DNA of 32,000 nucleotides, from assembly GCF_003428155.1 (NCBI RefSeq), contig NZ_QLIR01000016.1, positions 9,412 to 41,411 on the forward strand, read 5' to 3'. Both the position numbers and the translations under genes were made by a program. This document shows, piece after piece, positions 29,510 through 29,663 of this stretch; the stretch's first letter is position 1; each line of letters starts with the position of its first letter. Source of the stretch: Fastidiosibacter lacustris (GTDB lineage Bacteria > Pseudomonadota > Gammaproteobacteria > Francisellales > Francisellaceae). The notes under the pieces are model-generated. The model was not told the origin of the DNA. It was given only the letters and a program-made list of their open reading frames with translations, and made no database searches.

Positions 29510-29538
29510 TGGACATTCGTCATGGCAGTAGTTAAAAT
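29510..29538 (+). promoter_or_regulatory. Putative sigma70 promoter driving the stand-alone 5S rRNA gene
   Basis: TGGACA (29510-29515), a 17-nt spacer, then TAAAAT (29533-29538). The predicted start about 7 nt downstream coincides with the 5' end of the 5S sequence at about 29545. Confidence 0.4.
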
Positions 29539-29544
29539 GCCGCT

Positions 29545-29663
29545 TGCTTGACGATAATAGCAAGTTGGTCCCACCTGAATCCATTCCGAACTCAGAAGTG
29601 AAACAACTGAGCGCTGATGATAGTGTAGTATTCGCTATGTGAAAGTAAGACATCGTCAGGCAT
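29545..29663 (+). rRNA. rrf: 5S ribosomal RNA (about 119 nt), not linked to 16S or 23S
   Basis: TGCTTGACGATAATAGCAAGTTGGTCCCACCTGAATCCATTCCGAACTCAGAAGTGAAACAACTGAGCGCTGATGATAGTGTAG...CATCGTCAGGCAT aligns end to end with E. coli 5S. The universal CCGAACTCAGAAGTGAAAC and GGTCCCACCTGA blocks are conserved. The terminal helix I pairs (GCTTGACGAT with ATCGTCAGGC), and helix II shows compensatory changes (AGTTG with CAACT). Confidence 0.9.

Follow-up and report, generated by a model that had tools for sequence, protein, structure and literature searches.

Analysis of a 32-kb stretch of DNA, below called the window, suggests that it carries a functional 5S rRNA gene that lies apart from any rrn operon, is served by its own sigma70-type promoter and is the ortholog of the orphan 5S rRNA gene of Francisella. 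We assign a probability of about 80% to this reading. The gene adds one more case to an oddity already on record for Francisella, whose orphan it corresponds to, and is not a new kind of gene.

An Rfam scan of the whole window gave a match to the 5S family (RF00001) at 29547-29661 on the plus strand, with a score of 77.3 bits (E 5.9e-15) against a gathering score of 38, and with model positions 1-120 of 120 covered and no truncation. The original prediction, made from the letters of the sequence, had claimed a complete 5S rRNA gene and had named a search with this model as the check; the significant full-model match upholds that identity. The 5S was the sole Rfam match at the curated threshold in the 32 kb. 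The same scan found no 16S, no 23S and no other Rfam family in the window, in agreement with what had been predicted for the two large rRNAs, and no SSU or LSU gene was found downstream in the remainder of the contig either. A search with ARAGORN found no tRNA in the 32 kb. A permissive Rfam scan of 29300-29800 likewise returned the 5S alone, and the candidate that the spacers hold an rrn-operon remnant or another non-coding RNA was rejected on this result.

The 5S rRNA of E. coli extends beyond the Rfam model by two nucleotides at the 5' end and by one or two at the 3' end. The ends of the E. coli molecule, which we take to be UGCCUGGCGG... and ...CCAGGCAU, were used to set the mature ends of the window gene at 29545-29663 (plus strand), since the match at 29547-29661 was extended by this analogy. 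The inferred mature RNA of 119 nt reads UGCUUGACGAU...AUCGUCAGGCAU. Its minimum free energy fold is a three-way junction, the canonical Y, with an energy of -32.1 kcal/mol as compared to a mean of -23.5 kcal/mol for shuffled sequences (z = -2.7). The universal block of loop C and helix III, CCGAACUCAGAAGUGAAAC in its gammaproteobacterial form, is located at 29586-29604.

The gene is flanked upstream by yidC (27703-29415, plus strand; NCBIfam NF002352, E 2.6e-165), encoding the membrane protein insertase, for which the public gene call starts at 27739. Downstream follow lolC (29751-31001, plus strand; TIGR02212 lolCE, E 5.8e-150), which encodes a lolC/E-type lipoprotein-release permease, and, with an overlap of 8 nt, the gene for the ABC ATPase LolD (30994-31683, plus strand; TIGR02211 LolD, E 4.2e-93). 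Both distances given in the original prediction were reproduced, namely 129 nt between the yidC stop (29415) and the 5S, and 87 nt between the 5S and the lolC ATG (29751). Also among the neighbours of the 5S is rnpA, and the other genes of the window are ordinary chromosomal housekeeping genes (tolQ-tolR-tolB-pal, fabI, sucCD, bamE and a lipid A acyltransferase). In the region 29751-31683, lolD comes immediately after the one LolC/E-type permease gene and no further permease gene is inserted, which we take to match the single-permease ('LolF'-like) arrangement described for Francisella. Elsewhere in the window, an ORF of 627 aa (21731-23614, plus strand) had no match in NCBIfam, and two ORFs of 425 aa (17161-18438, plus strand) and 251 aa (14878-15633, plus strand) had no Pfam match at 1e-8.

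A LolC protein identical at every residue to that of the window is encoded on JAMBMW010000018.1, a 40.8-kb draft MAG contig of assembly GCA_024208055.1. The closest relatives of the window organism are Cysteiniphilum, Caedibacter taeniospiralis and Fangia, with Francisella adjacent; the identity of its YidC was 79-81% to Caedibacter taeniospiralis and Cysteiniphilum, 68% to Fangia and 51-54% to Francisella. In the NCBI taxonomy, Cysteiniphilum and Fangia belong to the Fastidiosibacteraceae and Allofrancisella to the Francisellaceae, both within the Thiotrichales. Unlinked 5S genes were found at eight orthologous loci. At three of them, in Cysteiniphilum marinum (L003), C. halobium (L004) and a related MAG (L002), the gene lies about 50 nt after yidC. 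At the other five it lies directly upstream of lolC-lolD: in F. tularensis (L084), where the order is dnaE-def-5S-lolC-lolD-cadA-gcvT, and in Fangia hongkongensis (L085), Allofrancisella guangzhouensis (L088), an ENA metagenome assembly (L089) and a Fangia-like metagenome assembly (L210). All eight genes are full length, score 77-86 bits and are detached from rrn operons, so that the detachment predicted for the window copy holds at every orthologous locus. No 5S was found beside lolC in Piscirickettsia salmonis (L086), Thiotrichales bacterium 19S11-10 (L087) or Cysteiniphilum sp. QT6929 (L083), or within the 243 nt available in L211, and none was found after yidC in Caedibacter taeniospiralis, Fangia or Francisella.

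Both linkages, yidC-5S and 5S-lolCD, are present in the window organism, and the window thus bridges the two arrangements. Adjacency of 5S, lolC and lolD was observed in at least five genus-level lineages with a different upstream neighbour in each (yidC, def, or a gene for a permease, a glycosyltransferase or a transposase), and members of two NCBI families still carry the orphan gene. The number of positions identical to the window 5S decreased from 109 of 119 in Cysteiniphilum to 105 of 119 in Fangia and 92 of 119 in F. tularensis. The synteny points to vertical inheritance of the orphan 5S from an ancestor common to Francisella, Allofrancisella, Fangia, Cysteiniphilum and the window organism. 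No flanking repeats were found around the 5S and, together with this synteny, their absence led us to reject a mobile-element origin.

All sequenced Francisella have three operons of the type 16S-tRNAIle-tRNAAla-23S-5S and one unlinked 5S gene of 119 bp, summarized as '3+1', and this orphan is annotated as FTT_r01 in F. tularensis SCHU S4 and as FTN_0501 in F. novicida U112 (PMC3479022). Three operons and one orphan 5S are likewise described for Francisella in two other studies (PMC4230796, PMC2737636). Since there is one unlinked 5S per Francisella genome, the unlinked gene between def and lolC in F. tularensis is the orphan of the literature, and we infer that the window 5S is its positional ortholog.

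In one table footnote the Francisella orphan is called a '5S rRNA fragment' (PMC3479022), and several non-canonical pairs are marked in the cmscan alignment of the window gene, as might be expected if the gene were a silent relic, a pseudogene decaying after an old rrn rearrangement. We consider this highly improbable. Against the label of fragment stands the full length of the gene, at 77-86 bits, in all orthologs analysed here, and against decay stand its persistence across two NCBI families, its conserved promoter (see below) and its universal blocks: CCGAACUCAGAAGUGAAA (CCGAACTCAGAAGTGAAA) is invariant in the alignment of the orphan orthologs, and the loop C and helix III block is invariant among them up to its last base, which agrees with the conservation of universal blocks claimed for the window copy.

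The substitutions are, furthermore, compensatory. The covariation alignment contained nine sequences, consisting of the eight orphan orthologs and one operon-linked metagenome 5S, and its RNAalifold consensus was the standard 5S fold. Standard pairing was observed in 96.3% of the cells as compared to 89.6 ± 0.9% in shuffles, and 12 of the 33 pairs had changed on both sides as compared to 4.4 ± 1.6. In none of the 500 shuffles was the observed value attained for any of three measures, namely pairing, both-side changes and the covariation score. When the 3' partners were shifted by 1-3 columns, the pairing fell to 25-40%. Compensatory pairing had originally been noted in helices I and II; in helix II, all six pairs covary (6/6). 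In helix V, a G-to-A and a C-to-U change have together converted a G-C pair into an A-U pair in the window lineage only. Thus, the covariation among the orthologs upholds the 5S fold and speaks clearly against decay; the region 29545-29663 is a genuine, structurally constrained 5S rRNA gene.

For the upstream region, the promoter scan found the same site as the one originally proposed, with a -35 hexamer TGGACA at 29510-29515 and a -10 hexamer TAAAAT at 29533-29538 (both on the plus strand), separated by a 17-nt spacer and together (29510-29538) agreeing with the consensus at 10 of 12 positions. The scan of 1.2 kb returned 8 sites against 4.7 ± 1.9 expected, and a single match alone is not significant. 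The promoter is credible because it is conserved in the orthologs, and not on account of the match in the window. When the eight loci were aligned with 100-nt flanks, the sequences upstream of the 5S were essentially unalignable except for the -35 and -10 blocks. Within the -35 hexamer, the letters T, G and A were the same in all eight, as were the T that follows this hexamer and the TA..AT of the -10 hexamer. The 100-nt upstream flank had 12 invariant columns in total, of which 8 were located in or beside the two hexamers. The best -35/-10 pair in the 60 nt upstream was found in the same register in every ortholog, with 8-10 of 12 consensus positions and spacers of 16-17 nt; in Allofrancisella, an alternative with a 19-nt spacer ties with the 16-nt one. 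All eight orthologs (8/8) thus have sigma70-type hexamers at a fixed position with a spacer within 16-18 nt. Assuming about 30 possible positions per lineage, we roughly estimate the chance of a constant register across about five independent lineages to be <1e-4. The hexamers being the only conserved upstream blocks, and in a fixed register, this pattern supports the presence of a dedicated 5S promoter.

The distance from the end of the -10 hexamer to the invariant TGACGAT of helix I is 10 nt, or 9 nt in Francisella and Allofrancisella. With the usual distance of 7 nt from the -10 hexamer, transcription is predicted to start at about 29545-29546. The fixed register thereby supports the earlier suggestion of a start essentially at the mature 5' end, to within about 2 nt. 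No map of Francisella transcription start sites was found in the literature search. The discriminator directly after the -10 hexamer is GC-rich both in the window (GCCGCT, 29539-29544, plus strand) and in Fangia (GGCCTG). A possible UP-element is the A-rich tract at 29488-29509 (plus strand), and A-rich tracts occur at the same place 5' of the -35 hexamer in all orthologs, which is weak evidence in genomes with 32-38% GC. The A-rich tract and the GC-rich discriminator are features that resemble rRNA promoters.

On the 3' side of the window gene, neither a consensus scan nor folding of 29640-29755 revealed a terminator between 29663 and 29751, in line with the original observation that no convincing terminator hairpin separates the 5S from lolC. 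A run of five T residues at 29681-29685 (plus strand), 18 nt past the 5S end, is hairpin-free upstream according to the folding and is not a canonical intrinsic terminator; a GC-rich hairpin followed by a U-run was thus not found after the window 5S. In Fangia, a T-run follows immediately after the 3' strand of helix I (ATCGTCAGATTTTTC), and T-runs follow 3 nt on in Allofrancisella and about 5 nt on in F. tularensis, suggesting that in these three the stem of the terminator may be provided by the terminal helix. Long-range pairing of the post-5S region with the lolC start region was rejected as not significant (z = -1.3).

On the sequence of the window, read-through from the 5S into lolC-lolD is possible, and it could be supposed that a 5S-lolC-lolD transcript is the main product and the 5S chiefly its 5' portion, with the promoter driving lolCD and the 5S being cut from the leader. 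If true, the export of outer-membrane lipoproteins would be tied to rRNA-type promoter control. Such a transcript would fit the 87-nt spacer without a canonical terminator and the adjacency kept in at least five genus-level lineages despite their differing upstream neighbours. However, an extended -10 motif, TGnTATGAT (TGCTATGAT; 29710-29718, plus strand), is conserved in the alignment about 35 nt before the lolC ATG, and is likely to be the promoter of lolCD itself. The motif is also found in L083, L084, L085, L088 and L089 and at 203-211 of L211, in Francisella and Allofrancisella in the form TGnTATnCTAT. It is present even where no 5S precedes lolC, as in Cysteiniphilum sp. QT6929 (L083) and L211, which argues that lolCD is not dependent on the 5S promoter. 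Moreover, the 5S and lolCD have parted in Cysteiniphilum and both survive, and in F. tularensis the spacer from the 5S to lolC is 526 nt (L084 3475-4000), as compared to 87-228 nt in the other genera, has T-runs after helix I and has no gene called in it. We therefore regard a 5S that is mainly the leader of lolCD as rather unlikely. Because the adjacency of the 5S and lolCD has outlasted changes of the upstream neighbour, read-through or coupling is still a live hypothesis, albeit a minor one.

A second promoter-like match (AAGACA-16-TATAAT, 10/12) was found at 29647-29674 on the plus strand, overlapping the 3' end of the 5S. It was rejected as a conserved element, the TATAAT being absent from the orthologs, and is probably either a chance match or an additional lolC promoter specific to the window.

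The original prediction left two interpretations of a detached 5S gene, fragmentation of an rrn operon or an extra copy with its own regulation. By analogy with Francisella, in which the ortholog coexists with three complete 16S-23S-5S operons, we favour the second part of this alternative: the window 5S is most likely an extra copy, beside operon-linked 5S genes that are presumed for the window genome. Fragmentation would mean that the rrn operons have lost their 5S, leaving the unlinked gene as the sole or main source of 5S rRNA. Fully unlinked rRNA genes do exist in Leptospira, Thermoplasma and Nanoarchaeum, in which the rRNA genes are dispersed and each has a promoter to itself (PMC2686494), and the draft contig showed no rrn operon of the window genome. 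However, MAG assembly usually misses the rRNA operons, which makes their absence from one contig uninformative, and the coexistence in Francisella speaks against such a loss. Fragmentation is thus disfavoured, and we judge it to be unlikely.

Comparators linked to operons were sought in public sequences. When metagenomes were scanned with a 5S pattern tuned to the family, nearly all of the 120 loci returned were from unrelated marine bacteria, and only in L092 and L147 was a Francisella-like 5S part of a full 16S-tRNAIle-tRNAAla-23S-5S operon. These two loci (1721-6746 in L092) come from the marine metagenomes Ga0228633 and Ga0228639 and from genomes without a known orphan; their 5S genes carry the Francisella-type signatures GATGATAGC, ATGATAGTCT and GGTGAAAGTAGGTA and provide a putative operon-linked comparator. 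Nothing was found in a scan of viral contigs for an operon-linked 5S. Model position 28 of the 5S is where the Logan short-read contig L082 (run SRR18916696), which has the same lolC, begins. Its start was rejected as a sign of other 5S copies, as it points to a branch of the assembly graph in a universal 5S block common to many bacteria.

An open frame is also present on the minus strand over 29545-29663. A profile of its translation retrieved 178 short 'hypothetical proteins' from public collections, including P0121-P0240; evidently these are false ORF calls on top of the 5S genes of many different bacteria. P0121 was the only one of the 178 from the Francisella-related group. It was rejected as an ORF over an operon copy and assigned to an orphan copy, given the close match between its C-terminal extension and the translation of the flank on the promoter side of the Fangia orphan.

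Taking the window 5S as an extra gene with its own promoter, RNA polymerase would begin on the first base of helix I or no more than about 2 nt away from it, and the primary transcript would need little or no 5' processing, as opposed to operon-borne 5S. The 3' end could be formed by termination at the T-rich sequence after helix I or by trimming back to helix I; the T-rich route is clear in Fangia, Allofrancisella and Francisella and weak in the window. The RNA would then join L5, L18 and L25 in the 50S subunit of the ribosome, and the gene is likely to provide an extra, separately controlled supply of 5S. A more far-reaching version can be imagined, in which a leaderless, processing-independent 5S with a 5'-triphosphate has been held beside lolC-lolD since the ancestor of Francisellaceae and Fastidiosibacteraceae for the sake of read-through coupling, and in which this 5S may differ from the operon copies and mark distinct ribosomes. 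Lipoprotein export would in that case be coupled to ribosome synthesis, and we give this version little credence.

On its own, the gene is of little importance: many bacteria have extra 5S genes, and the orphan is already recorded for Francisella. What is added to the cited Francisella genome papers is that the orphan is much older than the genus, being common to Fangia, Cysteiniphilum and the window organism, that its linkage to lolC-lolD has lasted in most lineages, and that it has a conserved promoter positioned for a start at the mature 5' end. The orphan is thus a natural test case for whether a bacterial 5S can enter ribosomes without 5' processing of the RNase E type, and for the reason why part of the 5S supply is under separate control in some bacteria. 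These questions could be addressed in the genetically tractable F. novicida.

In the rrn operons of E. coli, 5S rRNA is made from a 9S precursor that is cut by RNase E, after which the ends are trimmed. The window copy shares with this operon-borne 5S the RNA family, the fold and the universal loops, and its putative promoter is of the rRNA type, with a near-consensus -35 hexamer and a GC-rich discriminator. It differs from operon-borne 5S in having no upstream 23S and no long precursor, and in a predicted start that equals the mature 5' end, so that endonucleolytic release of the 5' end would not be needed. In the stand-alone 5S genes of eukaryotes and archaea, the primary 5' end is approximately the mature 5' end. 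The logic is similar here, several of the orthologs having a T-run directly or a few nt past the terminal helix. Unlike the eukaryotic and archaeal genes, however, the window gene has a bacterial sigma70-type promoter and no internal control region, and there is no homology of the transcription system.

The window 5S is comparable to the rRNA genes of Leptospira, Thermoplasma and Nanoarchaeum in standing alone under a dedicated, here predicted, promoter. In those organisms all rRNA genes are dispersed, whereas the Francisella group has normal operons and an extra 5S. Unequal numbers of rRNA genes are found in 23.6% of the bacterial genome entries in rrnDB, mainly owing to additional 5S copies (PMC2686494), and H. 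pylori 26695 has an orphan 5S rDNA next to plasticity zone 2 (PMC1245399). The window copy resembles such bacterial orphans in having no attached 23S. The other orphans are lineage-specific and often located by variable regions, whereas the type seen in the window is stable and vertically inherited, with a promoter conserved across several genera.

The closest known counterpart is the Francisella orphan itself. The two differ in their hosts, that of the window gene being Cysteiniphilum/Caedibacter/Fangia-like, and in sequence, with 92 of 119 positions in common with F. tularensis; they also differ in the upstream neighbour, which is yidC in the window and not def, and in the spacer to lolC, which is 87 nt as compared to 526 nt. 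Like the Francisella orphan, the window gene is unlinked to 16S and 23S, is about 119 nt long, lies directly upstream of lolC-lolD (as in L084), has its promoter hexamers in the same register and shares the helix I core TGACGAT...ATCGTCA.
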